A stretch of 50,913 bases of DNA, taken from positions 1 to 50,913 of the IMG/VR virus record IMGVR_UViG_3300049048_000060. The stretch is one strand, 5' to 3'. Under the pieces are notes generated by a model that saw only the letters and a program-made list of their open reading frames with translations, ran no database searches and had not been told where the DNA came from. Source of the DNA: a virus (lineage: Duplodnaviria > Caudoviricetes). Position 1 is the stretch's first letter, and every line of letters starts with the position of its first letter. A program made the position numbers and the translations under genes. Shown piece by piece: positions 7,640-25,163 of the stretch.

Positions 7640-7677
7640 TTGACAAAGTTGATAAACGCATTTTTATAGCGTAGCCT
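7640..7677 (+). promoter_or_regulatory. Capsid promoter with GTTGATAAACGC box
   Basis: TTGATA(7649)-17-TAGCCT, with an overlapping TTGACA at 7640. Confidence 0.65.
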
Positions 7678-7819: not shown

Positions 7820-8650
7820 ATGGCTGACTCCGCTTTTCAAACCCAGTACCGCAATGAGTTCATTGCGGGCTTCGAACAACGTCAATCGTTGGTTCGTCAA
7901 ACGGTAACCACCGAATCTACCATCAAGGGTAACCAAGCTACGTTCCTGGTTGCTGACTCTGGTAGCGCACAAGCTGTGACTCGTGGCCTGAACGGTCTGA
8001 TCCCTGCACGTGCTGACAACCTGAACCAGTACACCGCTACCCTGGTCGAATGGCATGACCTGGTTCGCAAGACCGGCTTCAACGTCTTCGCGTCCCAAGG
8101 CGATCAACGCCGCATCATGCAAATGACCACGATGGGCGTCGTCAACCGCAAGGTCGACCAAGACATCATCACCGAGCTGGGTAACGCTACCCAAGACACC
8201 GGTGCTGCTGCCACCGCAACCCTCGAAATGGTTATGCACGGCTTGGCTATCCTGGGCAACAACGCAGTTCCATTGGACGGTAACGTCTCTGCGCTGATTA
8301 CCCCAGCCTTCCACGCATATCTGATGCAAACCAAGGAGTTCGCCTCCGCAGACTACGTGACCAACAAGCCATTCTCTGGCGCGTTGACCATGTACCGCTG
8401 GGCCGGCATCAACTTCATCGTGCATCCGAACCTGCCAGGCAAGGGCACCGCAGCCGAGAAGTGCTTCCTGTACCATAAGGACGCGATCGGCCACGCAGTC
8501 AACACCGCCGGCATGGACTCCAAGGTAGGCATGGACGAAGAACAGGATTACTCCTGGGCACGTACCAGCGTCTACATGGGCTCCAAGCTCCTGCAGAACT
8601 CCGGTGTTGTTGTCTGGAACCACGACGGTTCTGGCTACGCAGCATCCTAA
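7820..8650 (+). CDS. Major capsid protein
   Basis: 276 aa after the scaffold gene, with strong SD AAGGAG and highly biased codons. Resembles the BPP-1-type capsid (F.TQY...F...FEQRQS.LR, C-terminal WARTSVYMG). Confidence 0.85.
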   Translation: MADSAFQTQYRNEFIAGFEQRQSLVRQTVTTESTIKGNQATFLVADSGSAQAVTRGLNGLIPARADNLNQYTATLVEWHDLVRKTGFNVFASQGDQRRIMQMTTMGVVNRKVDQDIITELGNATQDTGAAATATLEMVMHGLAILGNNAVPLDGNVSALITPAFHAYLMQTKEFASADYVTNKPFSGALTMYRWAGINFIVHPNLPGKGTAAEKCFLYHKDAIGHAVNTAGMDSKVGMDEEQDYSWARTSVYMGSKLLQNSGVVVWNHDGSGYAAS

Positions 8651-8659
8651 AGTGAGTGA

Positions 8660-8677
8660 GGTCCGCGAAAGCGGACC
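8660..8677 (+). other. GNRA hairpin after capsid gene, no U-tract
   Basis: GGTCCGC-GAAA-GCGGACC. Probably an mRNA-stabilising or processing stem. Confidence 0.55.
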
Positions 8678-8714
8678 CCTCTCCTGATTAACGCTTTAAG
8701 AAAGGAAACGCAAA

Positions 8715-9002
8715 ATGGCTTATGATTCCGATGAATTGGTACTGGTATCCCCAGCACCTCTGACCGGCAGCGGTCAAACCTGGAAGCATCGCAGCACCGA
8801 CGCCGGCGCGCAGGTACAAGTAACCGGCTACATCACTGATGGCGGCGCTCGTGGTATGAAGGTTGGTGACATCCTTCTGCACACGGACACCGACACCGGC
8901 CTGACGACCAGCCACTACGTCGAAACTGTCAGCTCCACCTACCCTGGTGCAGTCGACCTGTCCGACGCTACTACCGTAGTCAGCGGCACCAACTCCGACT
9001 AA
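8715..9002 (+). CDS. Probable capsid-associated protein
   Basis: 95 aa, co-transcribed after the capsid gene, with strong SD and biased codons. Confidence 0.6.
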   Translation: MAYDSDELVLVSPAPLTGSGQTWKHRSTDAGAQVQVTGYITDGGARGMKVGDILLHTDTDTGLTTSHYVETVSSTYPGAVDLSDATTVVSGTNSD

Positions 9003-9030
9003 GTAGTAAAACGGTAGCAGTTGTTATATA

Positions 9031-9066
9031 ATAAAGGGGTCCTCGAAAGAGGCCCCTTTATTTTTA
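9031..9066 (+). terminator. Rho-independent terminator
   Basis: ATAAAGGGGTCCTC-GAAA-GAGGCCCCTTTAT followed by a T-run. Confidence 0.85.
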
Positions 9067-9079
9067 GGAGATCTTCCCC

Positions 9080-9514
9080 ATGAAGCTGTTACACAATCAA
9101 GTACGACAGGCCGAATTCTGTCGCCAAGTATTCGTCGCCGTACCAGAAGCCGGTGCCGATTTCAAGGATCTGATTAAGCCCGAAGCCTGGGCTCATGTCC
9201 ACCAGCAATTCCAGCGCGGCACCCGTATCGAAGTCATGCCAGAAGACGGCGCCTACTTCGCAGAGCTGTACGTGACTTCCGTCAGCCTCAACGCGGCACA
9301 CGTAGTCGTTCTCCGTAAGATCGATCTTGACAAGGTCAAGGAAAATAGTGTTGCTAAACAGTCGGCCTTCGAGTACGCTTACAAGGGTCCAGTGAAGCTT
9401 CACTGCGTTATTCGGAAGTCGGACAAGGAGATCGTCAAGGATTCCCTGCCGAGCAAGAAAGCCTGCCTCGATTGGATCGAGCAGAACGAGAAGGTCACCT
9501 CGCAAAAGGATTAA
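9080..9514 (+). CDS. Hypothetical protein
   Basis: 144-aa ORF with SD AGGAG. Confidence 0.7.
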   Translation: MKLLHNQVRQAEFCRQVFVAVPEAGADFKDLIKPEAWAHVHQQFQRGTRIEVMPEDGAYFAELYVTSVSLNAAHVVVLRKIDLDKVKENSVAKQSAFEYAYKGPVKLHCVIRKSDKEIVKDSLPSKKACLDWIEQNEKVTSQKD

Positions 9515-9517
9515 AAC

Positions 9518-10156
9518 ATGCCAACACAGCTTTCGCTTTATAACGGTGCTCTCCGCAAGATTAAAGAGCGGAAGCTGTCGTCCCTCACCGAGAACCAGGA
9601 ACGTCGTCGTCTTCTCGACGACGCCTGGGACGGCCACATCAAGGAGTGCCTGGAAGCAGCCATGTGGCGCTTCGCTCGTCGCACCGTGAAGCTGGTGCGC
9701 GACAGCGAGTACACGGCATCCTTCGGCCACACCTACCGATTCACAAAGCCCGACGACTTCATCCGCACCATCGGCGTGTGGTACGACGACCGCTGCCAGA
9801 TCCCGCTGCTGGACTACCTCGAGGACGGCGGGTACTACTACTCCGATCTGCAGGAACCGTATTTTGCTTACGTGTCCTACGACGAAGAGTACGGCCGGAA
9901 TATGTCTATCTGGCCGGAGAGCTTCACCGAATTTGTGGAATGGAAGCTCGCGTCCAAGATCGTAGGCCGGCTGGCAAACGCCACTGTCGACGAGGCTTTC
10001 GTCGAGAAGCAACTCGAGAACCACGAGCTCAAGGCCAAGAGCCTGTCGGCCATGGAAGGACCAAGCCAGCGACAACCGATGGGTGGCTGGTCTTCCGCAC
10101 GAGTCAACAACTTCGGTCGACGCGACCGCGGCAACCGAGGTAACTTGATTGGCTAA
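9518..10156 (+). CDS. Tail tubular protein A / adaptor
   Basis: N.AL..I...L, W.FA, Y.F.KPDDF and F...LA..I pattern of T7 gp11-like proteins. Position matches. Confidence 0.8.
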   Translation: MPTQLSLYNGALRKIKERKLSSLTENQERRRLLDDAWDGHIKECLEAAMWRFARRTVKLVRDSEYTASFGHTYRFTKPDDFIRTIGVWYDDRCQIPLLDYLEDGGYYYSDLQEPYFAYVSYDEEYGRNMSIWPESFTEFVEWKLASKIVGRLANATVDEAFVEKQLENHELKAKSLSAMEGPSQRQPMGGWSSARVNNFGRRDRGNRGNLIG

Positions 10157-12800
10157 AACTCAGACTGAATTTCTCACCTTCAACCGCGGGGTCGTTAGCG
10201 CCCTCGCACAGGCGCGTACGGACATCAAGCGCGTCAATATGTCCGCGAAGAGCCAGGTCAACTGGATCCCGCGGGTGCTTGGGCCGATGTCCATCCGGCC
10301 AGGACAGGCGTATCTCCTGGAGACGGAGAACAGCAACGTCGCCTTCCACATACCCTTCATCTTCTCGCTCGACGACACAGCGATCATCCAGCTCACAGAC
10401 CAGACCATGCGAGTCATCGTCGACGACGTCGCTATCACCCGTGTGTCGGTAGCGACCACAATCGCGAACGGTAACTTCGATTCGAATGTCAACAGTTGGA
10501 CGGACAACGACGAGTCCGGCTGTACGTCAGACTGGCTTACCGGCGGGTACATGCGACTTATAGGCAACGGCACGCTTGCCGCTATTCGAGATCAATCAGT
10601 CTCTGTCGCCGTCGGCGACCAAGCGAAGGTACACGCGATCCGTGTGGTCGTCGAACAAGGCGACCTGATCTTCCGAGTAGGGACTACGTCCGGCGGAGAC
10701 GAGCTGGTGACGGAGACTGTCCTTCGCAAGGGCACCCATTCTCTGACCTTTACCCCAGGAACGGGCACGATCTACGTGCGGCTGATGTCACGAACCACCT
10801 ACAACACGCTCGTCGATTCCGTCAACATCGAGTCGTCCGGTGCGCTAGAGTTGCCTACCCCGTGGACGGAAGCCGAGCTTCCGAATGTTCGCTTCGAACA
10901 ATCCGGAGACGTGATCTGGGTGGCTTGCGGCCCAAACATCCGGCAGATGCGGATCGAGCGAAGAAGCGCGACCTCGTGGTCGGTTGTTGACTACCTGGCC
11001 AACCTCGGCCCTTTCCGTCCTCTGAACCTGACACCGGTCACGATCACTCCTAGCGGGCTGACAGGGAACATCACCCTGTCCTCGTCCGCCGCGTTCTTCA
11101 AGACAACAAACGTCGGCGGGCTTATCGCGATCAACTCCCTTGGTCAAACAGTTACCGCGAGCATCACCGCGCAGAACACGTTCACGTCCGAGATCCGAGT
11201 AACCGGCATCGGTGAAGGCCGACGCTTCGGGCTTACGATCACAGGACTCACCGGAACAGGAAGCTCGGTAACTCTGCAGCGATCGGTAGGCGCCCCAGGC
11301 GCCTGGGTCGATGTGATCTCCTACACGACCAACCAAACAACGACGTATCTGGACGCTCTCGACAACCAGATCATCTACTACCGTATCGGGGTAGCAACGG
11401 GTGACTACTCGTCCGGGACCATCGTGCCGACACTGGCGTACACCGCCGGTAGTATCAAGGGCATCGCCCGGATCACCGCCTTCACGAGCGCGACCGTCGT
11501 GTCAGCTATTGTGCTGAAAGACTTCGGTGCTACCACCGCCAGCCCAGACTGGGCCGAGGGCTCGTGGTCCGCGAGACGAGGATACCCGTCCGCGGTAGCG
11601 CTGCATGAAGGCCGCCTGTGGTGGGCCGGCTTCGACAAGATCGACGGGTCTGTCTCGGATGACTTTGCGAACTACTCGGACGAGGTCGAAGGAGATGCGG
11701 CACCTATCTCCCGAAGCATTGGTACCGGACCGGTGGAGACGATCAACTGGCTCCTGCCGGCACAGCTCCTGATTATGGGCGGCCAAGGCTCCGAGTTCAT
11801 CTGCCGGTCATCAACCCTCGGCGAACCTTTGACCCCTCTCAACTTCAACATCAAGGAAGCCACCACCCGCGGCTCCTTGCGAGTTGCCGCCGTTAAGGTG
11901 GACTCAAGCGCGGTCTTCGTTGACCGCTCCGGATCTCGCGTGTACGAGATGGAATACGACTCCGTCTCCAACAACTACGCGCCTATCGATCTCACGAGTA
12001 TTGTTCCAGAGATAGCCGCCGCAGGGGTACGACGCATCGGCGTCCAACGTCGTCCGGACACGAGATTCCATCTTGTACTTGACGACGGCACGGTAGCCTT
12101 GTTGGTGTTCGACAAGGCCGAAGACGTACGGGCATGGGTGACCTTGGAGACGGAAGGCGACTACGAGGACGTTATCGTTATGCCAGGAACTTTAGAGGAC
12201 CAGGTCTACTACTGCGTACGGAGAACGATCCAGGGGTCAAATAGGCGGTATCTGGAGCGCGTCGCGCTGCAGTCAGAGTGCGAAGGCGGAGCCGTCAACA
12301 AGCTGGCTGACTCGTTCATCCTGTACTCTGGAGCAGTCACCACTACGCTTACCGGGCTGACTCACCTGATACAGAAGGAAGTGGTCGTGTGGGGGGATGG
12401 CGTCGACCTGGGCACGTTCACGGTCGACACTAACGGGGAAATTGTGGTACCAACCGGCGTTGCCAATGCCGTCATCGGGTTGTCGTACAACGCGGACTAC
12501 GAAAGCTCCAAGCTCGGCGCGATCGGACAACGCCGCAACATCCAACGAATCGCGCTTGCGCTCTACAAGACTCACTACAAGGGCCTGAAGTACGGCACGT
12601 CTTTCGACACGCTAGACGATATGCCGGACGTGGAGCAGTGGGAGACGACCGAAGTGGACACGATCTGGGACGAGTACGATAACGACTCGACAGAGTTGAA
12701 CGGGTCGTGGGAGAACGACGCCAGGCTGTGCTTGCGAGCTACCGCTCCGAAACCATGTACCGTCCTCGGCGCCAGGGTAATAATGGACCAGAATGGTTAA
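10149..12800 (+). CDS. Tail tubular protein B / nozzle
   Basis: 883 aa with N-terminal F..G..S, GYPSAVALHEGRLW and C-terminal PCTVL, as in T7 gp12/P22 gp10-like nozzles. Confidence 0.85.
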   Translation: MAKTQTEFLTFNRGVVSALAQARTDIKRVNMSAKSQVNWIPRVLGPMSIRPGQAYLLETENSNVAFHIPFIFSLDDTAIIQLTDQTMRVIVDDVAITRVSVATTIANGNFDSNVNSWTDNDESGCTSDWLTGGYMRLIGNGTLAAIRDQSVSVAVGDQAKVHAIRVVVEQGDLIFRVGTTSGGDELVTETVLRKGTHSLTFTPGTGTIYVRLMSRTTYNTLVDSVNIESSGALELPTPWTEAELPNVRFEQSGDVIWVACGPNIRQMRIERRSATSWSVVDYLANLGPFRPLNLTPVTITPSGLTGNITLSSSAAFFKTTNVGGLIAINSLGQTVTASITAQNTFTSEIRVTGIGEGRRFGLTITGLTGTGSSVTLQRSVGAPGAWVDVISYTTNQTTTYLDALDNQIIYYRIGVATGDYSSGTIVPTLAYTAGSIKGIARITAFTSATVVSAIVLKDFGATTASPDWAEGSWSARRGYPSAVALHEGRLWWAGFDKIDGSVSDDFANYSDEVEGDAAPISRSIGTGPVETINWLLPAQLLIMGGQGSEFICRSSTLGEPLTPLNFNIKEATTRGSLRVAAVKVDSSAVFVDRSGSRVYEMEYDSVSNNYAPIDLTSIVPEIAAAGVRRIGVQRRPDTRFHLVLDDGTVALLVFDKAEDVRAWVTLETEGDYEDVIVMPGTLEDQVYYCVRRTIQGSNRRYLERVALQSECEGGAVNKLADSFILYSGAVTTTLTGLTHLIQKEVVVWGDGVDLGTFTVDTNGEIVVPTGVANAVIGLSYNADYESSKLGAIGQRRNIQRIALALYKTHYKGLKYGTSFDTLDDMPDVEQWETTEVDTIWDEYDNDSTELNGSWENDARLCLRATAPKPCTVLGARVIMDQNG

Positions 12801-13158
12801 GATAGAGAAGGCGACGGCCGAACACGTGAAAAAGTATTTCAACGGTAAGCTACCCGCTTTTAGCCTACGCGGGGTTGCCGCTGTCGATGGCGAACGAGTG
12901 TTGGGCATAGGCGGGATCTACCGGGCAGGTCACCAGTTCATGTTGTTCATAGACATGGACGAAGAAATGAAGAAGCACAAGAGGGCACTAATCGAGGCCT
13001 CACGACTGGTGTTACACGAAATAAACAGGTACACTATGGTAACCGCGATTGTTAATCCGGAAGACACGAAGGCCGTCGCCTTCGCAGAGCGTTTCGGGTT
13101 CGTGGACTCAGAGACGACAACCGAATACGGAAAGGTAATGGTGCGATGGAGCAGATAG
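12793..13158 (+). CDS. GNAT-fold protein (T7 gp13-like internal virion protein A position)
   Basis: V...N..A..F..RFGF acetyltransferase-like motif. Follows the nozzle gene. Confidence 0.6.
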   Translation: MVKIEKATAEHVKKYFNGKLPAFSLRGVAAVDGERVLGIGGIYRAGHQFMLFIDMDEEMKKHKRALIEASRLVLHEINRYTMVTAIVNPEDTKAVAFAERFGFVDSETTTEYGKVMVRWSR

Positions 13159-13697
13159 CAAATTACGCGCCCATGGTAGCGCAAGGCGTCGGAACCTTCC
13201 TCTCCTATAAAGGCGAGAAGCAGATCGGCAAGGCGCAAGCGGACCTCGCTAATTTCGAGGCCGCCCAGCTCGACCAAAACGCAGGCCAAGTACAGGCGGC
13301 AGGGCAACGCGCCGCCGAAGAAGAACGCCGCAAGACCACGCTCCTGTTGTCAAGAGCACAAGCCGTGGCCGCCGCATCTGGAGCTGGAACACTCGACCCT
13401 TCAGTCTTGAAGGTCATCGCTGGTGTCGCCGGAGAGGGCGCGCTGAACGCGGCAACCACCCAATACAACTACGACGAACAGGCCCGAGGTATGCGGAACG
13501 AGGGCAAGGGCCGCCGCTACTCCGGGCAGCTCGCAAAGGCTGCCAGCCGGATTCGAGCAAACACCACCGCCCTATCCGGCGCCGCGTCGATGCTTTCGAA
13601 GTGGGGTCCGACATGGGAAGAAGAGAAGAAAGCCCAGGGCTTCACCGGCTACGACTACGGCTCGTCCAAGGCCCCATCGGAGTTCTACAATGGTTAA
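13146..13697 (+). CDS. Internal virion (ejection) protein, T7 gp14-like
   Basis: Ala/Gln/Gly-rich, with the A..AASG.....S motif. Confidence 0.7.
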   Translation: MEQIANYAPMVAQGVGTFLSYKGEKQIGKAQADLANFEAAQLDQNAGQVQAAGQRAAEEERRKTTLLLSRAQAVAAASGAGTLDPSVLKVIAGVAGEGALNAATTQYNYDEQARGMRNEGKGRRYSGQLAKAASRIRANTTALSGAASMLSKWGPTWEEEKKAQGFTGYDYGSSKAPSEFYNG

Positions 13698-15432
13698 GTT
13701 AGTTGACCCGCTACAGCTAGACCGCGTTCAAGCACAACCTTCTACCAGAGTCGTTTCGCCTGAAGGTGTTGGCCGCGCGGAGCAGGCTCTGTCACAGATG
13801 GGCGACACCATCCAGACCCTCGCGATAAACGAGCAGAAGCGCATCGATGACGTCCGTCTTACGGAAGCGGAAACCCAGCTCATGCAGGCGGAGACAGAAC
13901 TCGAAGCCGACTACCGCACCAAGAAGAACGGCGACGTTCTGCAGCAAGGGTTCCACCAAGGGTACCAGGAAAAGTATCAGCAGGCCGCCAACGCTATCGG
14001 CGAGAAGCTCGTCACGCCTGGGCAGAAGCAACAGTTCCAGATGCTCACCAACCGTCGCCGTGCGGGGTACGACGCGAAGCGTGTTACCTACGCCATGGGA
14101 GAGACCGAGAGGTACGAGAGCGCGGTATTCAATAGCCGCATCGATCTCCTGACAAAGAAGGGCGCCGACAGCTACAAGGACCCTTCCGCGCTTGCTACCG
14201 CAGCCCTGGAGCTGGAAGACTCGTACGTGAAGGAAATGACTCGCAAGGGGCTCAAGGACCCTGCTATCCTGACGGCCGAATTGAGTAAGGTACGAGGCGC
14301 CTTCTGGGGTAACGTGCTTGACCGCGCGATCACCGACGAGGATTACTCGGCCGCGAACATGCTATTCGCTACGGCAGGATCTCAACTACCGGACGACAAG
14401 CGCCGTGAGATCGGTACCCGCCTGAACATCGCGAACGAAATGGTTAAAGGCACCACGATCGCGGAGACCGCTCTCGGGATGCAGAAGGCCGGCTCCAGTG
14501 CACAGGACATCGAGCTTTTCATCGCCAAGGAAGCAGGCTCGAACAAGGGCGTCTACAACGCCGCACAGACGGTACTGACGAACATCAAGCAGGCCGAGCA
14601 CACGCAGCGACAAGAGGCTGAAGGAACGATGCTATTGGATTTCCAGAAAGGCGGCGCCACCTTCGCGGCAATGAAGAAGGTCACCACTTCCGCGTCTTTC
14701 GCGCAACTCGACGCAGGTGCCCAGGCGAAGCTCATGGACACCATGCTATCCGACGCTCGTCAGACACAGACCTACAACCTACGGATGGCAGCCGAGGCGA
14801 AGGAAGCCGAACGGGCGAAGTTCGACACGCTTGAAACTTTCAGCAGGTACCAGGAAGTGCTTGACAGCCCAGAGTTCCCGAAGATGACACAGGCCCAACT
14901 GATGTCGTACCGGTCTACGCTCGGCCCTCAACTGACCTCGTCTTTGCTGAAGACACAGAAGGAAGTCGTATCCGGCGCCGCCAAGTTCCAGATCGACAAG
15001 GACATTCTCAACATGGCCATGCCGGAAGACGCGCTCAAAACTGGCAACAAAGACAAGCAGTATGCGTTCCGCGGTATCGTGGAACAGGAGCTGCAGAATT
15101 GGAAGGCCGCCAACCCAGGGAAGGTTCCTTCGATGCAGGAGCAGATGGCTATAGCCAGATCCGGCCTCAAGGAGTATAATATCAAGGGTGTCGTATTTGA
15201 TTCTACGAAGAAAGCCTACGAGCTGACGGACAAGGATCGAGCGAAGATCGCAGACCAAGCGAAGGCGGACGCAGCCAAGGCCCGCAAGGAAGCCGCTGAC
15301 CGCGCCAAGTTTGAGCGCGAGATTCAGGCAGAAGCCAGAAAGAACGGCGGACCCCTGACTCCGAAGCAGATCGAAGAAGCATGGAAGTTGAAGAACACAA
15401 CCCCTTCAGGAGCCGTACCTAGTCTCCTGTAA
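13690..15432 (+). CDS. Internal virion (ejection) protein, gp15-like position
   Basis: 580-aa helical protein between the gp14-like gene and the giant gene. Confidence 0.65.
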   Translation: MVKLVDPLQLDRVQAQPSTRVVSPEGVGRAEQALSQMGDTIQTLAINEQKRIDDVRLTEAETQLMQAETELEADYRTKKNGDVLQQGFHQGYQEKYQQAANAIGEKLVTPGQKQQFQMLTNRRRAGYDAKRVTYAMGETERYESAVFNSRIDLLTKKGADSYKDPSALATAALELEDSYVKEMTRKGLKDPAILTAELSKVRGAFWGNVLDRAITDEDYSAANMLFATAGSQLPDDKRREIGTRLNIANEMVKGTTIAETALGMQKAGSSAQDIELFIAKEAGSNKGVYNAAQTVLTNIKQAEHTQRQEAEGTMLLDFQKGGATFAAMKKVTTSASFAQLDAGAQAKLMDTMLSDARQTQTYNLRMAAEAKEAERAKFDTLETFSRYQEVLDSPEFPKMTQAQLMSYRSTLGPQLTSSLLKTQKEVVSGAAKFQIDKDILNMAMPEDALKTGNKDKQYAFRGIVEQELQNWKAANPGKVPSMQEQMAIARSGLKEYNIKGVVFDSTKKAYELTDKDRAKIADQAKADAAKARKEAADRAKFEREIQAEARKNGGPLTPKQIEEAWKLKNTTPSGAVPSLL

Positions 15433-15446
15433 CACCGAGGACCAGT

Positions 15447-18400
15447 ATGGCCAACCAGCATAAAGACCTGATCGCCCGCGTAGCGGAGTCTGCAGAACCA
15501 CAAGAAATTGATTACGGCAGTCTGATCTCCCAGGTCCGACCTACTGACAAGGTCAAGGAGTCCGTACTCACGGCCTCTTCCAAGAACCCAGACGAGGAAG
15601 CGCAAAAGCGCAAGCTCGCACCCCAGCTCGGCATCCCCGCTGGGCTGATAGATAACGTGAAGGACGCCCAGCGCGAAGTAGATCAGCAAGCCTACGACCC
15701 GCGCCGCCTGGTCGTCGAATCTCCAAAGACCGCTGACTATATCTCGAATCCGGACAAGCTGTCTTCTATGGGCCTTGACTCCGTCCAAGGGATGACGCAG
15801 CTCGAGCGTGTTATCTCCCAGGCAAAGATCGACAACGACACCAGCAGGTACGCGCCGAACCGTCCGAAGACGATCGTTGGCGCCGTACAGAACGCCTTCG
15901 GCCGAGCAGCAGGGCAGGCAGAGGCCTTGTTCTACGGCGGCATGGGCTTTGCTGCAGACGTACAAGGGCGCGACGACATCGCCCTGAATCTTCTTCGCCG
16001 CTACACCGCCACACAAGAGAAGACCGCCAAGGCCTACCCCGCAGCGGTACCTAGTTTCAAGGACATCAATTCCTGGGCTGACGTCCCTACCTACTTGCTG
16101 GAAGGCATCATCGAGAACGGCGGCTTCCTGGCAATGTCCATGGGCACCGGCCTTATCGGCAAGAAGACGGCCGAGATGGGCGTCAAACGCTTTGCAGACA
16201 CAGCCCTGACGGAAGCCGCGAAGCGTGAAGCCGTCAAGCGCGCTGGCGTCATCGGCGCCGCCGCTGGTTCCGGCACCGGATCTGTCGGGATGCAAACCGG
16301 CATGATCTACGGGGACGTGTTCGCCGAGACCGGGGAGCAGCGTCCTGGGGTGGCAGCGGCCTTCGGTCTTGCTACTGGTGCTCTGGATGCGTTCTCCGCC
16401 TTTAAAGGCGTACAGCAACTGTTCGGCAAGGAGATCGCCGAGCGGGTGGCCCAGACCGCAGTCCAACGCTACGGCGTCGAGGGCGCGAAGGCCATGTTCC
16501 GCGAAGGCTCCACGGAGTACATGCAAACCTGGCTCGAGAAGGGCGCTGTGTCCTTCGTCGACGGTAGGCCTTTGTTGAACGAAGAGAACCTGATCGAGAG
16601 CATGGACGCCTTCTTCAAGGGGGGCGCAGCCGGTGGTGCTATCCAGCAAGCCGGACAAGTGGCTGTCCACATCGCTGACCGCGTCACCGGTAAGCTCGAA
16701 ACCGCACGCGCGGAAAGCCGCGCTACCGAATCCCAGGAACGGGCAATGAAAGCCTGGGGCAACCTTATCATCAAGAGCGAGAAGCAAGAAGCCGACGCAA
16801 ACATCGTTACCGGCGCCGTAGACGCGCTAACGGAACTGAACGATACCGTTGCGAACCTGCCAGCCCGTTCGCGCGTTCCTGACCTTTTCCAAGAGTTTGT
16901 TGAGACTATGGTCGAGGACAGCAACCTGACCGACCTGTACGTGAACAGCACCACGGTCATGTCCGCAATCGAGACCGCTGGCCTGACGCCTGCCATGCTG
17001 CAGGAACAGGCACCGGTTCTGGCCGCACAACTTCAAGAAGCCCAGGACATCGGGACCGATGTCCGTATCCCGGTACAAGAATACCTTGCCGTCTTCCCTG
17101 GATCTGGCTCTGAACAAACGCTCCTGCAGGAAGCACGGGTAGAACCAGAAGGCCCAACCTACAAGGAAGCGGGCGAGTTCTACCAGAAGATGGGAGAGAC
17201 CTTCCAGCAAGAGATCGACACCGTCGAGCGCGAGACCCGTCCGGTCTTGACGCGCCAAGACTTCCAGCAAGCGAAAACCGCTGGCGACGTGACAGACCCG
17301 CTTGTCGGTGAAGCACAGTCGTACGAGCAGTACCTCGAGAAGCACGACAACCGCGAAGCGGTGAAGCAGGCCAACCGTGACGAGATCGAACAGACCCTGA
17401 TGGGCCAGATCCGTAACGTGACACGTTACACCGCTCCGGTACAACGAAGCATGATTACGCCTGTCATTTCGTTCTACGAGACCCAGGCCGCTAACCTCGG
17501 CATCTCCCCGATGGAGCTGTACCGTCGCTTCCCGCTTCGTATCTCTGATGCAATCGAGAACGCGATGCGTAGCCTGACCCAGATCATCACGCCGCTGAAG
17601 GGCGCTCCAGGGATCGTTACCCCGAACCCTGTGGCTCGTCGCCTGGCTGACAACTTCCGTGAAGACAATCGCGTAGCCGCTGATCCGGTACGCGACTACG
17701 CCGAAGTGAACGAGTCCCGCGCCAAGCGTATTGCTGCAGCATACGAGGACATGGAGCACGCGCCGAACGACCCGAAGGTCAAGGCTGCGTACGACGCGCT
17801 GATCTCCGAGACGGCCGCGCAGTACGAAGCCCTGCTCTCGACCGGTATCCGCGTCGAGTTCATCCCGGAAGGCGCAGAAGATCCGTATGCCGCGAGCCCA
17901 CGCATGGCGATCGACGACGTCAAGAACAACAACCATCTATGGGTATTCCCTACCACTGCCGGCTTCGGAAGCGGCGAGCAGTACGCGGGCAACCCGTTGC
18001 TGGCGAAGACCAAGTACGTCGACGCGAACGGCGTACCGATGCTCGCGAACGACGTCTTCCGTGTCGTGCATGATTACTTCGGCCACATCGCTGAAGGCGT
18101 CGGATTCCGTGCAGCGGGCGAGGAGAACGCATGGCGCCAGCACTCGTCTATGTTCTCGCCATTGGCCCGACGAGCACTGACGACCGAGACCCGTGGCCAA
18201 AACTCCTGGGTCAATTACGGCCCCTACGGCGAACGCAACCGTACCGCCAAGGGCAACGACACCACGTACGCAGACCAGAAGACCGGCCTCTTGCCGGACT
18301 GGGTTGTGTTCGAAGGTAGCGGCCAGGCTTGGATCGAGGACTTCCGTCCGGACAACATCCAGGAGATTCTGCAGAAGGATCACTGGGCTATACTGACGGC

Positions 18401-21400
18401 AGAGAATCCGAACAGCAAACCAGCAACACCGGAACAGAACGCAGCTCGCATGGCCGAGCTACGGGCAGAACTTGACACTATCGGCGCCGCGTACTACGAA
18501 GTCGACGGGTTCTATGACCGCCCAGAGAAGTCGCTCGCCGTGTTCGGTATCAGCAAGGACCAAGCCCTTGCTCTGGGCAAGAAGTTCGGACAGGAAAGCG
18601 TACTGACGCGCGAGGGTTTCATCTACCAGGACGGATCGATCAACCCAACTACCGGATCAGTAGACATCTTCGAAACCGCGCCAGAGAACTACTACAGCAC
18701 GATCCGGTTCCCTGACGGCGCCGTATCGCGGTTTGCGGTAGGGATTGACTTCGACACGAAGATCGTCCCTGGCCAACAGCGCGCAATCATGTTCCAGAAG
18801 GTTGACCAGACCAACACAGAAGCCTTCAAGAAGTGGTTCGGGGATAGCAAGGTCGTCGACGAGAACGGCGACCCGCTGGTCGTGTATCATGGCACGTTAA
18901 GCTCGTTCGATACGTTTGACAAAGCGGCCGTTGGAAAAAACTATGGTAAGTTTGCAAGAGGCCTACACTTTACGAGCGAACAAAAGCGCGCCAACTTCTA
19001 CGCCTTTATGTACCCGGAGTTCTACGGGAAATACTCGCCGAACATTGTTCCGGCGTACCTGTCGATGAAAAATCCACTAGTTATCGATTCAGGAGAAGAG
19101 TCCCCGATCGCGTACTTGGACGAAAACCCAGTGGCAGAAGAGCTTCTCGCCGGTCGAGACGGGATAATCGTAAACGGCAACGGGGAACAACACTTTGTGG
19201 TGTTTGAGCCAGAACAGATCAAGTCCGCCGTAGGTAACCGCGGTACGTTCGACCCAGAGAACCAGAACATAGTTATGCAATCTGGCAAGCCAGGCGAACT
19301 CACGATCCGTGGCACGCACTACTCGAACACGAGACGCGCCACCCTTAACGGCGATAAGTACGGCACTGGCTTGCGTGGCGCAGAGGCCGAAGCCGTTCGT
19401 CGTACCGAGGATCAGCGCCTCAAGTCCCGCGTCTACTTCTACGTTGACGAAGGCAACGGCACGTTCCCTGAAACGGGCGTCGGCTACGTGAAGCACGAAG
19501 TCACGCTGACAAATATGTACGACGGGGCTCGCAACCCTCTGAAGCTGAAGAGCACCAACCAGTTCGGCGTATTCGATTCGAACGTCTTCGAGGCCGCGGT
19601 ACTCGACGCCGGCTTCGATGGATACTACATAGAAGAGGGCTTTGGCCGCCAGGGCGTTGCAGTCGTTCTCGGTGACGCCGCGAAGTCGATCCCGGTAGAA
19701 GAACCGGAAGCGGCCATGTACCAGTCCGGCCCAGGATTCGAATCCTGGTTCGAAGGCTCGAAGGTCACGACACCTGAAGGCAAACCCCGTGTCGTGTACC
19801 ACGGCACGCAGGCTGATATCGGCGAGTTCAAACCGTCCGGCACGTACGGCGATATGTACTTCTTCACCGGTGACCAGGGGATGGCCAGCAAGTACGCAGG
19901 CGCTCGCGAAGGCGCGAACGTCATGCCATTGTATCTCTCGATCAAGAACCCGTACTACATCGACAGCATGGACCAGTACGACGGGCAGACGCTACGTGAA
20001 GCCAAGGCCGCTGGGCATGATGGCGCGATCCTTCGCACGAACGGTGAAGAGCTTGTCTACGTCGCCTTCCGTCCGTCGCAGATCAAGTCCGCGATCTCGA
20101 ACACAGGTGCGTTCTCCGGTTCCGACAACCGTCTCATGTTCCAGTCGACGCAACTGCGCCGAGGCACCGAGACCCTGAAACGCTTCGGCCTGGACCCTAC
20201 AAAGAGCTATACGACTCGCGAAGTCGCGGCGGCTCTGGAAGCGCGTCAACGTAAGAAATACGGGCAGATCGATACGAAGGATGTGAGCCCGGAAGCCAAG
20301 AAGAAGATCGCGTCCTGGATGGTCGACGAGGTCCTTTTCGAAATGGAGAACCCAGAAAGCTCCGGCATGGGCTGGTACAGCTACAAGTACCAGAACGCGA
20401 TCGACATTCTCGCGCAGGATGGCGCCCCTGAACTTGCTACCGACAAGGCCGCACGAGATCTCTTCACCGCTTTGGTGGCGATCACGTCCGACGGTCAGAA
20501 GGTCGTAGGCAACTTCGCGCAGGCGATGGACATCTACAAGAATATCCGCGACAACAATGTCTTCGAGAGCAGCCGCAAGCACCAACGCCAGGCGTCAGTT
20601 GACGCGAACCTTGGCGCGCTGAAGGACCTGTACGACACGCTCGGCCCAGAAGGCTTGCACGAGTTCCTGTTACAGGAGAAGACCGTCGGCGAGCTGAACA
20701 CCATCGCCAAGGAACAAGGCATCACCTTCAACGTGCAATACTCGCCGAAGGTGAAGCTGCCGATGGCGGCGGTCATCTTTGGCCCGAAGCTGGGCGCGTT
20801 CTACGCGAACCTGATGGGCAAGGAAGGCTACCTGACGATGGATCGCTGGTGGACCCGCACGTTCAACAGGTACCGCGGTACGCTTCTCACGGCACCGACC
20901 AAGGGCTCACTCGACAAGCTCCGTGAACTCCTGGGGGACGCCACTCTGTCGGACGACCAAGTCATCTCGGCAGCAGCGACCTACGAGGAGATCTACCGCA
21001 AGAGCGGGTACAAGGACAAGACCCCTATCAACGTGGCCGCGAACACGGTACATCGTGCCGCCTTCGGGATTCAGGACTCTCCTGCTCGGGTATCCGAGCG
21101 CACATTCATGATCGACACGGTAGCGGAGGCGAGAAAAATGTTGGCTCGCCGTGGTGTCGACATTTCGATCGCCGACATTCAAGCAGTTCTTTGGTATTAC
21201 GAAAAGAGACTTTATGGACAACTTGGAGCAAGAGATTCAGCAGACGTCAGCTACGAAGATGCAGCTAGACGAGTTGTCGCCCTTCGAGGAGATTACACCC
21301 GCCAAGCGGAAGCAGATCCTGCAGAAGATGGCGAAGCAGTATCGCCCGGTACAGAACTCTACCAAGCCGAAGGGGCGCTCGGCTCGTTCAACCTAGACAC

Positions 21401-24400
21401 GCTCACGATCTCGTTACTGTCCGGCGCGAACCTGTCGACGTTCATCCACGAGTCCGGCCACTTCTACCTGAAGATGCTGGAAGAATTGAGCAAGCAGCCT
21501 AACGCACCTCAAGGCGTGATCGACGACTTCAACAAGACCCTCGACTGGTTCGGCGTCACGCGCGAACAGTGGGAAGGCTTCGGCCTAGAAGAGATGCGTC
21601 CGTACCACGAGCAGTGGGCACAAAGCTGGGAACGCTGGAACCTGGAAGGCCAAGCACCTACGGCCGATCTGCAGCCGCTGTTCTCCCGCTTCCGCGCATG
21701 GCTTCTCATGGTCTACAGGTCCGTCGAGCAATTCCTGAAGCAGAACCCGCTTGCCGGCAACCTGAATGACGAGATCCGTCTCGTGTTCGGTCGCCTGATC
21801 GCAGCGGAAGACGCGATCAAGAAGACCGCCGAAGCACGTTCCTACCTGCCTCTGTTCGAGACCGCTGAAGAAGCGGGCACGAGCCAGGCGGCCTTCGAAG
21901 CCTACGTAAAACTCGGCAAGGAGTCCGAGCAAGTCGCTGTCGACACCATGCAAACGAAGAGCATGAAGGATATGCGCTGGCTGTCTAACGCACGCTCCAA
22001 GGCGATCCGCGAATTGCAAGCCCTGGCAAAGGTCAAGCGTCGCGAGATCCGCGCACAGGTCGAGCTGGAAGTCATGACTGAACCAGTGAACCAGGCTCGC
22101 ACTTTCATGCGTACTGGCTCGATCACGAATCCGGACACGGGAGAACGCACCAAGATCTCGGACGAGTTCAAGATGAACACGAGCGTGGTCCGTGCTATCG
22201 CTCCGGACGTCGACCTCGCTGACCTGCGTGGCATGACTTCCGACACCGGTGTCGACCCTGACCTGATCGCTCCTACCTTCGGCTTCACCAGCGGTGAACA
22301 GATGATCCGCGAGATCCTGTCCGCGGAGAACGCCCAGGAGAAGATCGACGGCATCACCGACCAGCGTATGTTGGAAGAGAACGGGGAGCTGATCGACGAA
22401 CGCGCTATCCAGCAAGCCGCTGACGAAGCTCTGCACAACGAAGCCCGTGCCCGCTTCATGGCCACCGGTCTCAAGATGCTGATGAAGCAAGGCAACATCC
22501 GGCAGATCGTGAAGGCAGCCAAGCAGGCAGCGGATACCGCCATCGCCGGCAAGCGCGTCCGTGACGTGAAGCCGAACCAGTACCTTGCAGCGGAAACCCG
22601 TGCGAACAAGGAAGCTATCAAGGCAGCGCCTACCAGCCCACAGAAAGCCGCTGAAGCGCAGCGCGCAGCTCTCTTGAACAACCAGCTCGCCCGTTCCGCG
22701 CAAGAGGCTGTAAAGGACGTGGAGAAGGCTTTACGGTACCTCGACAAGTTCAACAGCGAAGGCACCCGCAAGAATCTCGATATCGAGTACCTTGAGCAGA
22801 TCGACTCGCTCCTGGAACCGTTCGACCTGCGTCGTGGCTTGAGCCTCTCGACTATCGATCGCAACGTCGCGCTATCGGACTGGGTCGCCCAGCAAGAAGC
22901 CCTTGGCTTCCAGCCTATTATCGATCCGGAGATGGTTGCCGAGGCACGCCGTAAGTCCTACAAGAACATGACCGTCGAGGAGTTCCGCGGACTCGTTGAC
23001 ACGATCAAACAGATCGAGCATCTGGGTCGCCTGAAGAAGAAACTCCTGACGGCCAAGGATCAGCGCGAGTTCGACGAGCGTATCTCGGAAGCGCGTGCAT
23101 CGATCGAAGCCAACGCCAACCGCACGGTCAAGCAACGCGAGACGCCGAACGACGTGCTCGGCAATGTCGGCGCCTGGGTGCGTCAGATGGCCGCGTCTCA
23201 CCGTAAGTTCGCGAGCTTCATCCGTGAGCTTGACGGCGGCAAAGATCTCGGCGTCGTGTCCGAGCTTCTGGTCTACCCGATGCTAGAAGCTGGCCAACGC
23301 GAAACGGACATGAAGGGGCAGGCCGCAGAACGCATGGCACAGCTTTTCGAACCGATACTCGCGAACCTGAAGACAGGCTTCGTCCCTGGCAACGTGTACG
23401 CGCGCAAGTCTGTCGTGCCTGGTACCGACATCTCCATGACCCACGAACAACGAATCATGTTCGGGATGAACTGGGGGAACGAGGGCAACCGCCAACGTCT
23501 GCTGGATGGCGGGCTCCCTGGCAAGCGTGCCCTGTCTGTGCAAGAGGCTCGAGCGATCCTGGACACCCTGACCAAGGAAGAGTGGGACTTCATCCAGGCG
23601 ACATGGGACTTCATCGCCGAGTACAAGCCGCTGATCGCGGAACAAGAACGCACCCTTACCGGCAAGACGCCAGAATGGGTTGAGCCTGCTGAAGTCGAGA
23701 CCAAATTCGGTACCTACCGAGGCGGCTACTTCCCGGCCAAGTACGACGCGATCCTGTCCACCCGCTCCGATACTCTCGAAGCGGCAGCGGACTTGCGCCA
23801 AGCGATGCAGGGCGCGTACAACCGTGCCTCGGCTCGTGACGGCTACACCAAGCAACGGGCAGACGAAGTCATTGGCCGCCCTATCCTGTTGTCCTTCAAC
23901 GCGGTATCGAGACACGTCAACGAAGTCGTCCACCGTATCGCGTGGCAGGACTGGCTGATCGATGCTGCACGGGTTCTCAAGGCGCTTGACCCAGACATCC
24001 GTCTGCGTCTCGGCCAGGAAGCTCTCCGCGAGATGCAACTCGCGGTTCGGGATATCGCGTCCGGCGACGCCCCTGCCACGGGTCCGGTCGACGTTGCTAT
24101 CAACCGAATCCGTGCAGGCTCTTCGATCGTCGGCATGGGCTGGCGCTTCATGACCGCCCTGCTGCAGCCTTCAGGCATCTTCCAGTCCTGGGCAAGGCTC
24201 GACGCCAAGTGGACCGCGATCGGCATCAAGAACGTACTCGCGAATCCGGTAGAGGCAAATGACTGGGTGAACGCCAACTCGCCGTTCATGCGTAACCGTG
24301 CCAAGACTCTCAGTCGCGAGGTCAACGAGATCATGAACACGGTACGCGCAGGGAAGAACGTCTCCGCCGTCACTGCCAGCTACTTCGGCATGATCGCGAA

Positions 24401-25163
24401 GATGCAACGGATGATCGATCTCCCGACCTACCTCGGCGCGTACCACAAGGCCTTGGCCGAACTCAAGTACGAAGACGCAGCCAGCGACAAGCAACGCCAG
24501 GCTATCGAAGCGAAGGCACACGACTTCGCGGCACAGACCGTCATCGATACACAAACCGGTGGCGAGCTGAAGGACCTGGCAAGCGTGCAACGCGGATCAC
24601 CAGTCTACAAGCTGTTCACGAACTTCTACAGCTACTTCTCGACCCTGTATAACCTGAACGTCGAGAACTATCGGACGAAGCGATTCTCGAATCCGGCAGA
24701 GTTCGCGGACTTCGTTGGCACGTTCCTGTTGCTGAACACCATGCCTGCGATCTACTCCGTGCTTCTTCGAGAGGCCTTCCGCGAGGATTGTGGCTGGGAC
24801 GACACGCTGTGTCTGCTGAACAAGTACAAGACCGAGCAGTCGCAGATGATGTTCGGCCAGATGATTCTGCTGCGCGAAGTCGGCGCCGGGGTCGATGTGG
24901 CGACAGGCGGTAACGCTTACGGCTACTCCGGACCTGCGGGATTACGCTTCTTCGCAGACGTCTACAAGGCTGGCCAACAAGCCGAGCAGGGCGAGGCAGA
25001 CTTCGCGCTCTTCAAGTCGCTGAACAACGTCGCAGGGGCCTTGCTGCACTATCCGGCAGGGCAGATCAATACGACGACCGAAGGTCTTCTCGCGATTAAC
25101 GACGGCACGGTGGAAGGGGTCGACGCGATCCTGGCACTGATTGCAGGTCCGCCGAGAGATTGA
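15447..25163 (+). CDS. Giant internal virion polyvalent protein (ART-like x3, HhH-glycosylase-like, zincin metallopeptidase)
   Basis: 3238 aa in the gp16 position. Two F..WF..SKV....G.P.VVYHGT...QIKSA..N.G.F domains, HESGH at 21447, GPK..F...L.G...TMDRW, VHDYFGH and AILTAENP motifs. Confidence 0.85.
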   Translation: MANQHKDLIARVAESAEPQEIDYGSLISQVRPTDKVKESVLTASSKNPDEEAQKRKLAPQLGIPAGLIDNVKDAQREVDQQAYDPRRLVVESPKTADYISNPDKLSSMGLDSVQGMTQLERVISQAKIDNDTSRYAPNRPKTIVGAVQNAFGRAAGQAEALFYGGMGFAADVQGRDDIALNLLRRYTATQEKTAKAYPAAVPSFKDINSWADVPTYLLEGIIENGGFLAMSMGTGLIGKKTAEMGVKRFADTALTEAAKREAVKRAGVIGAAAGSGTGSVGMQTGMIYGDVFAETGEQRPGVAAAFGLATGALDAFSAFKGVQQLFGKEIAERVAQTAVQRYGVEGAKAMFREGSTEYMQTWLEKGAVSFVDGRPLLNEENLIESMDAFFKGGAAGGAIQQAGQVAVHIADRVTGKLETARAESRATESQERAMKAWGNLIIKSEKQEADANIVTGAVDALTELNDTVANLPARSRVPDLFQEFVETMVEDSNLTDLYVNSTTVMSAIETAGLTPAMLQEQAPVLAAQLQEAQDIGTDVRIPVQEYLAVFPGSGSEQTLLQEARVEPEGPTYKEAGEFYQKMGETFQQEIDTVERETRPVLTRQDFQQAKTAGDVTDPLVGEAQSYEQYLEKHDNREAVKQANRDEIEQTLMGQIRNVTRYTAPVQRSMITPVISFYETQAANLGISPMELYRRFPLRISDAIENAMRSLTQIITPLKGAPGIVTPNPVARRLADNFREDNRVAADPVRDYAEVNESRAKRIAAAYEDMEHAPNDPKVKAAYDALISETAAQYEALLSTGIRVEFIPEGAEDPYAASPRMAIDDVKNNNHLWVFPTTAGFGSGEQYAGNPLLAKTKYVDANGVPMLANDVFRVVHDYFGHIAEGVGFRAAGEENAWRQHSSMFSPLARRALTTETRGQNSWVNYGPYGERNRTAKGNDTTYADQKTGLLPDWVVFEGSGQAWIEDFRPDNIQEILQKDHWAILTAENPNSKPATPEQNAARMAELRAELDTIGAAYYEVDGFYDRPEKSLAVFGISKDQALALGKKFGQESVLTREGFIYQDGSINPTTGSVDIFETAPENYYSTIRFPDGAVSRFAVGIDFDTKIVPGQQRAIMFQKVDQTNTEAFKKWFGDSKVVDENGDPLVVYHGTLSSFDTFDKAAVGKNYGKFARGLHFTSEQKRANFYAFMYPEFYGKYSPNIVPAYLSMKNPLVIDSGEESPIAYLDENPVAEELLAGRDGIIVNGNGEQHFVVFEPEQIKSAVGNRGTFDPENQNIVMQSGKPGELTIRGTHYSNTRRATLNGDKYGTGLRGAEAEAVRRTEDQRLKSRVYFYVDEGNGTFPETGVGYVKHEVTLTNMYDGARNPLKLKSTNQFGVFDSNVFEAAVLDAGFDGYYIEEGFGRQGVAVVLGDAAKSIPVEEPEAAMYQSGPGFESWFEGSKVTTPEGKPRVVYHGTQADIGEFKPSGTYGDMYFFTGDQGMASKYAGAREGANVMPLYLSIKNPYYIDSMDQYDGQTLREAKAAGHDGAILRTNGEELVYVAFRPSQIKSAISNTGAFSGSDNRLMFQSTQLRRGTETLKRFGLDPTKSYTTREVAAALEARQRKKYGQIDTKDVSPEAKKKIASWMVDEVLFEMENPESSGMGWYSYKYQNAIDILAQDGAPELATDKAARDLFTALVAITSDGQKVVGNFAQAMDIYKNIRDNNVFESSRKHQRQASVDANLGALKDLYDTLGPEGLHEFLLQEKTVGELNTIAKEQGITFNVQYSPKVKLPMAAVIFGPKLGAFYANLMGKEGYLTMDRWWTRTFNRYRGTLLTAPTKGSLDKLRELLGDATLSDDQVISAAATYEEIYRKSGYKDKTPINVAANTVHRAAFGIQDSPARVSERTFMIDTVAEARKMLARRGVDISIADIQAVLWYYEKRLYGQLGARDSADVSYEDAARRVVALRGDYTRQAEADPAEDGEAVSPGTELYQAEGALGSFNLDTLTISLLSGANLSTFIHESGHFYLKMLEELSKQPNAPQGVIDDFNKTLDWFGVTREQWEGFGLEEMRPYHEQWAQSWERWNLEGQAPTADLQPLFSRFRAWLLMVYRSVEQFLKQNPLAGNLNDEIRLVFGRLIAAEDAIKKTAEARSYLPLFETAEEAGTSQAAFEAYVKLGKESEQVAVDTMQTKSMKDMRWLSNARSKAIRELQALAKVKRREIRAQVELEVMTEPVNQARTFMRTGSITNPDTGERTKISDEFKMNTSVVRAIAPDVDLADLRGMTSDTGVDPDLIAPTFGFTSGEQMIREILSAENAQEKIDGITDQRMLEENGELIDERAIQQAADEALHNEARARFMATGLKMLMKQGNIRQIVKAAKQAADTAIAGKRVRDVKPNQYLAAETRANKEAIKAAPTSPQKAAEAQRAALLNNQLARSAQEAVKDVEKALRYLDKFNSEGTRKNLDIEYLEQIDSLLEPFDLRRGLSLSTIDRNVALSDWVAQQEALGFQPIIDPEMVAEARRKSYKNMTVEEFRGLVDTIKQIEHLGRLKKKLLTAKDQREFDERISEARASIEANANRTVKQRETPNDVLGNVGAWVRQMAASHRKFASFIRELDGGKDLGVVSELLVYPMLEAGQRETDMKGQAAERMAQLFEPILANLKTGFVPGNVYARKSVVPGTDISMTHEQRIMFGMNWGNEGNRQRLLDGGLPGKRALSVQEARAILDTLTKEEWDFIQATWDFIAEYKPLIAEQERTLTGKTPEWVEPAEVETKFGTYRGGYFPAKYDAILSTRSDTLEAAADLRQAMQGAYNRASARDGYTKQRADEVIGRPILLSFNAVSRHVNEVVHRIAWQDWLIDAARVLKALDPDIRLRLGQEALREMQLAVRDIASGDAPATGPVDVAINRIRAGSSIVGMGWRFMTALLQPSGIFQSWARLDAKWTAIGIKNVLANPVEANDWVNANSPFMRNRAKTLSREVNEIMNTVRAGKNVSAVTASYFGMIAKMQRMIDLPTYLGAYHKALAELKYEDAASDKQRQAIEAKAHDFAAQTVIDTQTGGELKDLASVQRGSPVYKLFTNFYSYFSTLYNLNVENYRTKRFSNPAEFADFVGTFLLLNTMPAIYSVLLREAFREDCGWDDTLCLLNKYKTEQSQMMFGQMILLREVGAGVDVATGGNAYGYSGPAGLRFFADVYKAGQQAEQGEADFALFKSLNNVAGALLHYPAGQINTTTEGLLAINDGTVEGVDAILALIAGPPRD
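21214..21396 (+). CDS. Candidate overprinted small ORF inside the giant gene (alternative frame)
   Basis: ATG preceded by AAGAG. The 60-aa product is charged and helical-looking, and the host frame shows a local AT-rich codon shift. Confidence 0.35.
   Translation: MDNLEQEIQQTSATKMQLDELSPFEEITPAKRKQILQKMAKQYRPVQNSTKPKGRSARST

Follow-up and report, generated by a model that had tools for sequence, protein, structure and literature searches.

Record IMGVR_UViG_3300049048_000060 of IMG/VR (Caudoviricetes; 50,913 nucleotides, referred to below as the window, i.e. the whole stretch analysed) encodes a 3238-aa protein of the type of Bbp10 from Bordetella phage BPP-1. In this protein, six cargo modules precede a HExxH domain that is a putative metallopeptidase (zincin), and the modules meet at joints that hold the short peptide hydrophobic-x-Gln (x represents any amino acid). 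The conserved form of the joint is [LIMVFY]-x-Q, usually followed by Ser, Gly or Thr, and it marks module boundaries in relatives of the protein, while the joint peptide changes with the type of zincin encoded at the same locus. The joints may be the recognition and cleavage sites of the embedded zincin, a reading to which about even chances are given and in which the cut, the bond, the timing and the enzyme are what we infer. That the joints are cut by a protease of any kind is considered fairly probable, and the reading of the chain as an array of swappable cassettes is supported.

Joints between the cargo modules

In the preliminary description of the window, the domain boundaries in the centre of this protein had been placed on six recurring tripeptides. 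All six, as well as the HESGH motif downstream, were found where they had been placed, in frame 0 of the open reading frame (ORF) at 15447-25163 (Table 1). Module boundaries were set independently of the tripeptides from the 587 high-scoring segment pairs (HSPs) of BLASTP comparisons between the query and 119 relatives. The starts and ends of these HSPs cluster at residues 699-718, 957-966, 1103-1127, 1275-1283, 1415-1431, 1560-1571 and 1945-1988, and six of the seven clusters correspond to the six tripeptide sites, the extra one being 957-966, so that the location of the tripeptides at module boundaries is borne out. The two stretches matching the Pfam family ART-PolyVal and the stretch matching DUF3293 all fall between the tripeptides. 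Two further candidates for joints were rejected, namely ILQ974 as a seventh joint near the 957-966 cluster, as relatives carry LLN there, and LFQ480 near a cluster of HSP starts, as its Gln is absent from the family consensus.

Two AlphaFold2 models were built from alignments of 28 and 25 rows, the latter for a fragment comprising residues 1405-1990. The predicted local distance difference test (pLDDT) falls below 50 at residues 1405-1424, 1551-1572 and 1950-1990 in one model and at 1930-1977 in the other, while confident stretches extend over about 1427-1550 (ART-PolyVal module 3) and 1573-1949 (module F). Three of the six sites are covered by the models, MFQ1564 and LYQ1971 lying inside segments of pLDDT <50 and MYQ1424 at the edge of one, and all three are thus predicted to lie outside folded domains, in or beside linkers as are the cleavage sites of polyproteins. 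Because pLDDT is below 50 between confident domains, the conserved tail of the ART modules is regarded as a linear motif rather than as part of a fold. The modelled fold of the zincin begins at residue 1979, six residues past LYQ.

The query holds five matches to [LM][FY]Q, with 1.4 expected; the pattern that covers all six tripeptides, [LMV][TFMY]Q, has eight matches, six of them at junctions, and [LMIV]-x-Q occurs 41 times. As a motif of the family, exact [LM][FY]Q was rejected, as it is not enriched in 120 proteins (154 observed, 133 expected), and it is a feature of this lineage. The preliminary proposal of a conserved [LM][FY]Q junction therefore fails in its exact form and stands in the looser form hydrophobic-x-Gln, for which the observation is well beyond chance at the family level and modest in the query alone. 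Met is favoured in the junctions of this phage (MFQ, VMQ, MYQ, MFQ), where relatives carry Leu, Phe or Tyr and Met reaches 3%, a preference by which the site may have shifted in this lineage. Internal translation starts at these Met codons were rejected as an explanation, as no Shine-Dalgarno-like sequence occurs within 24 nt upstream of the six sites and Met is so rare in relatives.

A total of 1170 relatives were counted; protein analyses were performed on the best 120 of them and locus analyses on the best 80, and the counts below are uncorrected for shared ancestry, in effect comparing a few clades. In the 110 relatives carrying the same zincin anchor, [LIMVFY]-x-Q is present within -10 to +6 of 64.6% of 413 cargo start-breakpoints and of 25.4% of random positions, and Gln is the sole third residue enriched above 1.53-fold (test confined to clusters of the cargo region that were supported by at least 10 subjects). 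When counted by the following module, with distinct upstream windows only, the motif is found before module F in 87 of 88 cases (control 18%), 18-48 residues ahead of the HExxH motif of the zincin in 96 of 99 (control 37%), and no more than 30 residues upstream of ART heads in 44 of 55 (control 36%). Of the 33 distinct windows that follow the N-terminal region, 28 contain it in the 30 residues past a Y-P-L-K-V-like motif, mostly at 12-15. As in a polyprotein, one short conserved peptide thus stands at the boundaries of unrelated domains.

The tail of the ART-PolyVal modules has the consensus QIKSAxGNxGxFDPxxPxILxQ in relatives, and the Gln ahead of module F is invariant in the 25-row alignment. 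In a logo of 239 distinct joints, the residue two before Gln is Leu (46%), Phe (22%) or Tyr (12%), and the residue after it is Ser (42%), Gly (13%) or Thr (11%). All five cultured relatives (BPP-1, Caulobacter SR18, Pseudomonas AF, Xanthomonas CP2 and Vibrio 1.185.O) keep hydrophobic-x-Q before HExxH, down to 27% identity.

It is very improbable that the motif is functionless in itself and was merely inherited with the module ends, or left as a trace of recombination joints, through shared ancestry and chance. The pattern is common enough for such an origin, as its 41 occurrences as [LMIV]-x-Q in the query and its presence in 25-38% of control windows indicate; the exact form is not enriched in relatives, and a first breakpoint test on the whole protein (1243 end clusters, unrestricted) was nearly flat, at about 0.07-0.08 vs 0.05. 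However, the motif is shared at fixed spacing by non-homologous modules (head of module F, head of the zincin, head and tail of the ART modules, tail of the N-terminal region), Gln alone is enriched as third residue, and where the lineage has another zincin, module F lacks the Gln although its own sequence is retained. The six sites have different nine-base sequences, and nine bases are insufficient for a recombination signal.

The junctions had also been proposed to be points of cargo swapping, and in the relatives the modules are indeed exchanged and permuted between conserved Gln joints. The order of modules differs in, among others, P0006 (N-terminal region, module D, module F, module B1), P0023 (DUF3293, D, B1, F, ART) and P0010, and module D is found at other positions of the chain in relatives, while module F is always entered via hydrophobic-x-Gln, irrespective of the module preceding it. 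Single chains can also hold many ART-PolyVal stretches, 15 being present in P0022 (4536 aa), with tails ending in P-S-I-L-x-S, and 13 in P0024 (4957 aa), with tails ending in N-P-D-I-R-F-S.

Joint type and zincin type

An independent set of IMG/VR loci, found through module F, comprises 80 loci with 66 distinct upstream windows, of which 35 have a match to the Bbp10-type zincin, 22 have none and 9 are ended by the end of the contig. Gln is the residue directly preceding module F in 33 of the 35 loci that have this match and in 2 of the 22 that lack it, the latter being scored with more than 6 kb of downstream sequence and mostly holding other HExxH types. In the band of 40-55% identity, the corresponding counts are 16 of 17 and 2 of 12. 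The ART tails of the 120 proteins follow the same division, as 68 of 70 end in hydrophobic-x-Q where the Bbp10-type anchor is present vs 12 of 61 where the search pattern did not detect the anchor, a class that includes at least one protein (P0040) whose zincin was overlooked by the pattern. The tails in this class end in S-I-L-x-S, D-I-R-F-S or D-I-R-L-R-R-K.

A sister clade with a zincin of the type R-H-E-x-x-H-A-L-K-x-L-G-F-F carries homologous ART and module F cargo and has joints of the form hydrophobic-S-[LT]-R, which occur 31 times in 9 giant ORFs (2.9 expected) and are located upstream of ART heads and of module F and downstream of ART tails. Examples are residues 1032, 2046, 2243, 2406 and 2565 of the giant ORF of L071, and others are found in L069-L082. 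Two further small groups of zincins ([RK]ST[VLI] and basic-Q/S-A) offer too few occurrences for a junction dialect to be judged. The strongest argument for a protease site is that the sequence of module F is kept while the peptide preceding it changes with the type of protease, and the embedded zincin is ranked above other proteases because the joint peptide changes with the zincin type.

Module F and zincin occur together in one ORF in 39 loci. In L026 they lie in overlapping ORFs (7472-11833 and 11547-17282, overlap about 290 nt), which could reflect a frameshift, an error in the sequence or a genuine split. In L092, which belongs to a distant podophage group, module F is encoded by a separate 626-aa gene (9902-11782) after a gp15-like gene, and the next gene (11782-14706; 974 aa) is without HExxH. 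The ends of standalone module F proteins say little, because most short matches come from short contigs.

In the favoured mechanism, a Bbp10-type internal virion protein would, by analogy with T7 gp16, be packaged inside the head and ejected before the DNA. Its chain would consist of the N-terminal region, the six cargo modules (a domain of no named family, DUF3293, ART-PolyVal, another domain of no named family, ART-PolyVal and a DUF7178-like module), the zincin and a helical C-terminal region like that of IVP-D (internal virion protein D). The modules would be connected by disordered linkers, each with the hydrophobic-x-Gln of its lineage, mostly followed by Ser, Gly or Thr. The zincin would cut these joints inside the filled head or after ejection, which would free the ADP-ribosyltransferases and other modules as separate effectors, and a standard joint would permit the exchange of cargo by recombination with processing retained. 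It is further suggested, tentatively and at somewhat less than even chances, that giant ejection proteins are polyproteins with private protease codes, in which each zincin clade has its own junction peptide and cargo is re-tagged on moving between clades, so that sets of effectors can be re-assorted yet released singly.

Several points weigh against cleavage by the embedded zincin. Distant proteins of 594-678 aa carry module F behind a conserved Y-L-P-Q, with an alignment to the Gln joint that is approximate, and their loci gave no tblastn match to the Bbp10-type zincin; in L092, no HExxH is present in the long + strand frames scanned. The heads of module D (15/30; control 36%) and DUF3293 (5/8; control 41%) carry the motif at near-background frequency. 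The site is somewhat depleted just inside module starts and is not avoided in the structural N- and C-terminal regions (observed/expected 1.30 and 1.03, like control tripeptides); because it occurs there at the expected frequency, three residues cannot be the whole specificity, and disorder or more residues would be needed. A specificity for Gln in the P1 position is unusual for zincins. Foldseek comparison of the zincin model with PDB gave no match at E ≤0.001, and the open-access literature searched contains no cleavage product for this family. According to PMC5512222, the virion RNA polymerase of N4, ArdC and TraC1 carry a metallopeptidase (MPTase) yet are packaged or transferred uncut.

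The uncut state of these three proteins, the Y-L-P-Q retained in the distant zincin-less group and the lack of avoidance elsewhere in the protein all suit an alternative in which the joint is a functional but uncut linear motif (a hinge or cap, a packing handle or an aid to threading through the tail) and the zincin acts elsewhere, e.g. on a host protein or the cell wall. Conservation in disordered linkers would suit any linear motif, and a preprint on phage phi24B, which describes a 2811-aa polyvalent protein in the virion and reports no processing of it, ascribes the metallopeptidase of the phage's large virion protein to peptidoglycan degradation (10.64898/2026.04.10.717836). However, a hinge or handle would not explain why homologous joints have different peptides in proteins with different types of zincin, and an invariant polar residue with a hydrophobic residue two before it and a small one after it resembles the subsite pattern of a protease. 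This alternative is regarded as rather unlikely.

Cleavage of the joints by another protease, either a head-maturation protease of the phage or a host enzyme, is improbable. In form, hydrophobic-x-Gln resembles the site of the T4 prohead protease. A 339-aa gene of the window weakly matches the 'protease' family phrog_458 (Table 1), and its BPP-1 counterpart, bbp18, carries the annotation 'protease'. On the other hand, neither Pfam nor NCBIfam places the 339-aa protein in a family of peptidases, no sequence in PDB matches it, and both its position and a C-terminal helical match (WXG100-like, below the cut-off) fit a scaffold, which it probably is. The type of joint follows the type of zincin, and the major capsid and cement proteins of BPP-1 show their full size and are considered uncleaved (PMC3863775). 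The candidate head protease is thereby weakened, and the embedded zincin is retained as the preferred enzyme.

Module map, zincin domain and virion genes

The modules of the 3238-aa protein, the junctions between them and the relevant neighbouring genes are listed in Table 1.

Table 1. Modules and junctions of the 3238-aa protein and selected genes of the window (positions of the window; residues of the 3238-aa protein)
Feature	Residues	Position	Strand	Basis or remark
Giant ORF (3238 aa)	1-3238	15447-25163	+	Putative Bbp10-type polyvalent internal virion/ejection protein; T7 gp16 (IVP-D) position
N-terminal conserved region	1-709	15447-17573	+	LPD22 at 39-127, Pfam E 1.3e-08; 43 HSP ends at 699-700
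Junction LTQ	710-712	17574-17582	+	In frame
Cargo module B1 ('VHDYFGH' domain)	713-957	17583-18317	+	phrog_3170 E 3.2e-13 over 762-926; 18 HSP ends at 957
Cargo module DUF3293	964-1114	18336-18788	+	PF11697 E 9.1e-16, match 983-1052
Junction MFQ	1115-1117	18789-18797	+	In frame; HSP starts at 1116-1127
ART-PolyVal module 1	1118-1278	18798-19280	+	PF18760 over 1138-1268; tail ...FDPENQNIVMQ
Junction VMQ	1276	19272-19280	+	In frame; end of ART-PolyVal module 1
Cargo module D ('GTHYS')	1279-1423	19281-19715	+	Without Pfam/NCBIfam match
Junction MYQ	1424-1426	19716-19724	+	In frame; 37 HSP starts at 1429-1431
ART-PolyVal module 3	1427-1566	19725-20144	+	PF18760 over 1444-1556
Junction MFQ	1564	20136-20144	+	In frame; end of ART-PolyVal module 3
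Cargo module F	1567-1949	20145-21293	+	DUF7178-like; most conserved cargo; 30 HSPs begin at residue 1566
Acidic linker	1950-1977	21294-21377	+	Holds junction LYQ
Junction LYQ	1971	21357-21365	+	In acidic linker
Zincin-like metallopeptidase core	1978-2132	21378-21842	+	HESGH, residues 2001-2005, at 21447-21461
C-terminal helical IVP-D-like region	2133-3238	21843-25163	+	Collinear with BPP-1 Bbp10
gp14-like gene		13146-13697		PF24072 T7_gp14 E 7.7e-07; PHROG internal virion protein
580-aa gene, gp15-like position		13690-15432		Lysin-type PHROG match
339-aa gene between portal and capsid genes		6582-7601	+	phrog_458 'protease', weak, E 1.9e-6

The domain repertoire is that of a polyvalent protein, as the two ART-PolyVal stretches (E 6.1e-46), LPD22 and DUF3293 all score above the Pfam cut-offs, while nothing reaches the cut-off in residues 713-960, 1279-1423 and 1567-1970 or in the HExxH region. 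Family phrog_9880 covers residues 1968-3225 with a score of 1081.9 bits. Among the labels given to the cargo in the preliminary description, the ART-like nature of domains 1 and 3 agrees with the Pfam matches of both to ART-PolyVal, which predict this function, and the best PDB matches of the model of module 3 in Foldseek are the PARP domains of tankyrases (E 9.5e-3, prob 1.00). The domain containing AILTAENP, described as DUF3293-like, matches PF11697. Two labels were not upheld. The 'THYS ART-like' domain (residues 1276-1423) has no Pfam match, its sole lead being ART-PolyVal clusters of the Atlas (score 0.92), and for the 'HhH-glycosylase-like' domain (residues 1564-1970) no HhH-GPD or related family or fold is present among the matches in Pfam (E ≤5), NCBIfam, the Atlas and Foldseek. 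The nearest family of the latter domain is DUF7178, as indicated by a weak match (E 0.0055) and by DUF7178-like Atlas clusters.

The zincin domain contains the invariant residues S1997, H2001, E2002, H2005, E2055 and G2068 in the 28-row alignment, with H2054, E2062 and Y2064 nearly so, among them the residues of a His-Glu...Glu helix downstream of HExxH. None of the 110 anchored relatives lacks HExxH. In the model, two strands are followed by the HExxH helix and then by further helices. The region has no match in Pfam, NCBIfam or PDB sequences, a PDB sequence search having returned one chance match (E 1.2), and it is assigned as a putative zincin from its HExxH motif and from PMC3650047. A complex prediction of the zincin core (1975-2135) with a joint segment (1550-1585, 36 residues) gave no answer (score 0.00) and is evidence neither way. 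Besides the conserved HExxH, a second one is present upstream in the Bbp10 homologues L101 (Pseudomonas phage AF_016; HEVQH at 807) and L102 (Xanthomonas CP2 ORF24; HEVLH at 926).

The window is a genome-scale contig of a BPP-1-like podophage whose structural genes form a module of the T7 type. Its genes are arranged in the order terminase, portal, scaffold-position gene, major capsid, tail tube, gp14-like, 580-aa gene, 3238-aa ORF and tail fibre, so that the ORF lies amid virion genes, as is typical of polyvalent proteins. The C-terminal 1268 aa of the ORF match 49 phage records, the best of which belong to the Rauchvirus group (39% identity over 99-100%) and comprise Caulobacter SR18, BL94, Jess A and RapA and Bordetella BPP-1, BMP-1 and BIP-1. 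With Bbp10 of BPP-1 (NP_958679; 2052 aa), which is encoded at the equivalent gene position, identity is 39% at 99% coverage, and Table 2 of Hardies et al. (2016; PMC4819975) includes Bbp10 among the homologues of gp16, the IVP-D of T7. The placement of the ORF at the gp16 position, made in the preliminary description, thus holds, because Bbp10 occupies the same gene position and is a listed IVP-D homologue; gp14- and gp15-like genes upstream, including one matching T7_gp14, are those expected for a gene of this kind. The 3238-aa protein is probably carried in the phage head and injected into the cell, its packaging and ejection being deduced from membership of the IVP-D family.

Significance and comparison with known systems

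If the joints are cut, the mature injected effectors would become predictable from sequence for hundreds of uncultured podophages (1170 relatives counted), and the zincin autoprocessing proposed in 2017 would become testable with named residues. Cutting would also explain how a 350-kDa chain leaves through the tail channel, namely in pieces, and would suggest a natural plug-in system by which foreign proteins might be placed in phage heads and delivered. If the joints are uncut, the peptide is still a conserved and hitherto undescribed linear motif of a very large protein family.

Processing of polyvalent proteins by their zincin MPTase, in the head or after injection, was proposed by Iyer, Burroughs, Anand, de Souza and Aravind in 2017, who cite the processed P1 protein DdrB alongside the proposal of autoprocessing (PMC5512222). 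The main text of that article names no junction or cleavage motif, 'cleavage site' occurring just in the title of a reference and 'linker' nowhere. The open-access literature searched on polyvalent proteins, MPTases, ejection, cleavage sites and Bbp10 yielded no article in which a junction or cleavage peptide of such proteins is named. The protein of the window resembles the polyvalent proteins of Iyer et al. in combining multiple effector domains (ART-PolyVal, LPD22 and others) with a putative HExxH zincin in one chain encoded next to virion genes. It differs in that its junction peptide is defined, lies in disordered linkers and varies according to the type of zincin. As the idea of processing by the zincin is already published (PMC5512222), only the site is new here.

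Compared with Bbp10 of BPP-1, the protein shares the position after gp14- and gp15-like genes, the homologous C-terminal region, 39% identical over 1258 residues, and the joint before the zincin, as HESGH is preceded by K-F-Y-Q in Bbp10. However, Bbp10 carries little cargo, whereas the protein of the window has about 1260 cargo residues in its six modules. T7 gp16 itself is not known to have a zincin or ART modules. The metalloprotease of CLCA1 cleaves itself. The relationship of the Bbp10 zincin to the CLCA metalloproteases is distant and profile-based, residues 700-1000 of Bbp10 (the zincin region) having served as a seed of the CLCA_X zincin set of Lenart et al. (2013; PMC3650047).

Among polyproteins, the joints resemble in form only those cut by the viral 3C and 3C-like proteases, as the presumed cut lies between Gln and a small residue, a hydrophobic residue stands upstream and the sites are in interdomain linkers. 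The 3C and 3C-like proteases are cysteine enzymes of chymotrypsin fold that cut polyproteins after Gln, and no domain of this kind was found among the scanned ORFs of the window (Pfam, PHROG and NCBIfam). The prohead protease of T4, gp21, cuts at Leu/Ile-x-Glu, and the injected proteins packaged in the T4 head include the ADP-ribosyltransferase Alt. The T4 system is thus similar in its short hydrophobic-x-polar site and in the presence of an ADP-ribosyltransferase among the head-packaged injected proteins. It differs in that the capsid proteins of BPP-1 are, according to PMC3863775, uncleaved, and in that the T4 protease and its cargo are encoded by separate genes, whereas in the protein described here cargo and zincin are part of one chain.

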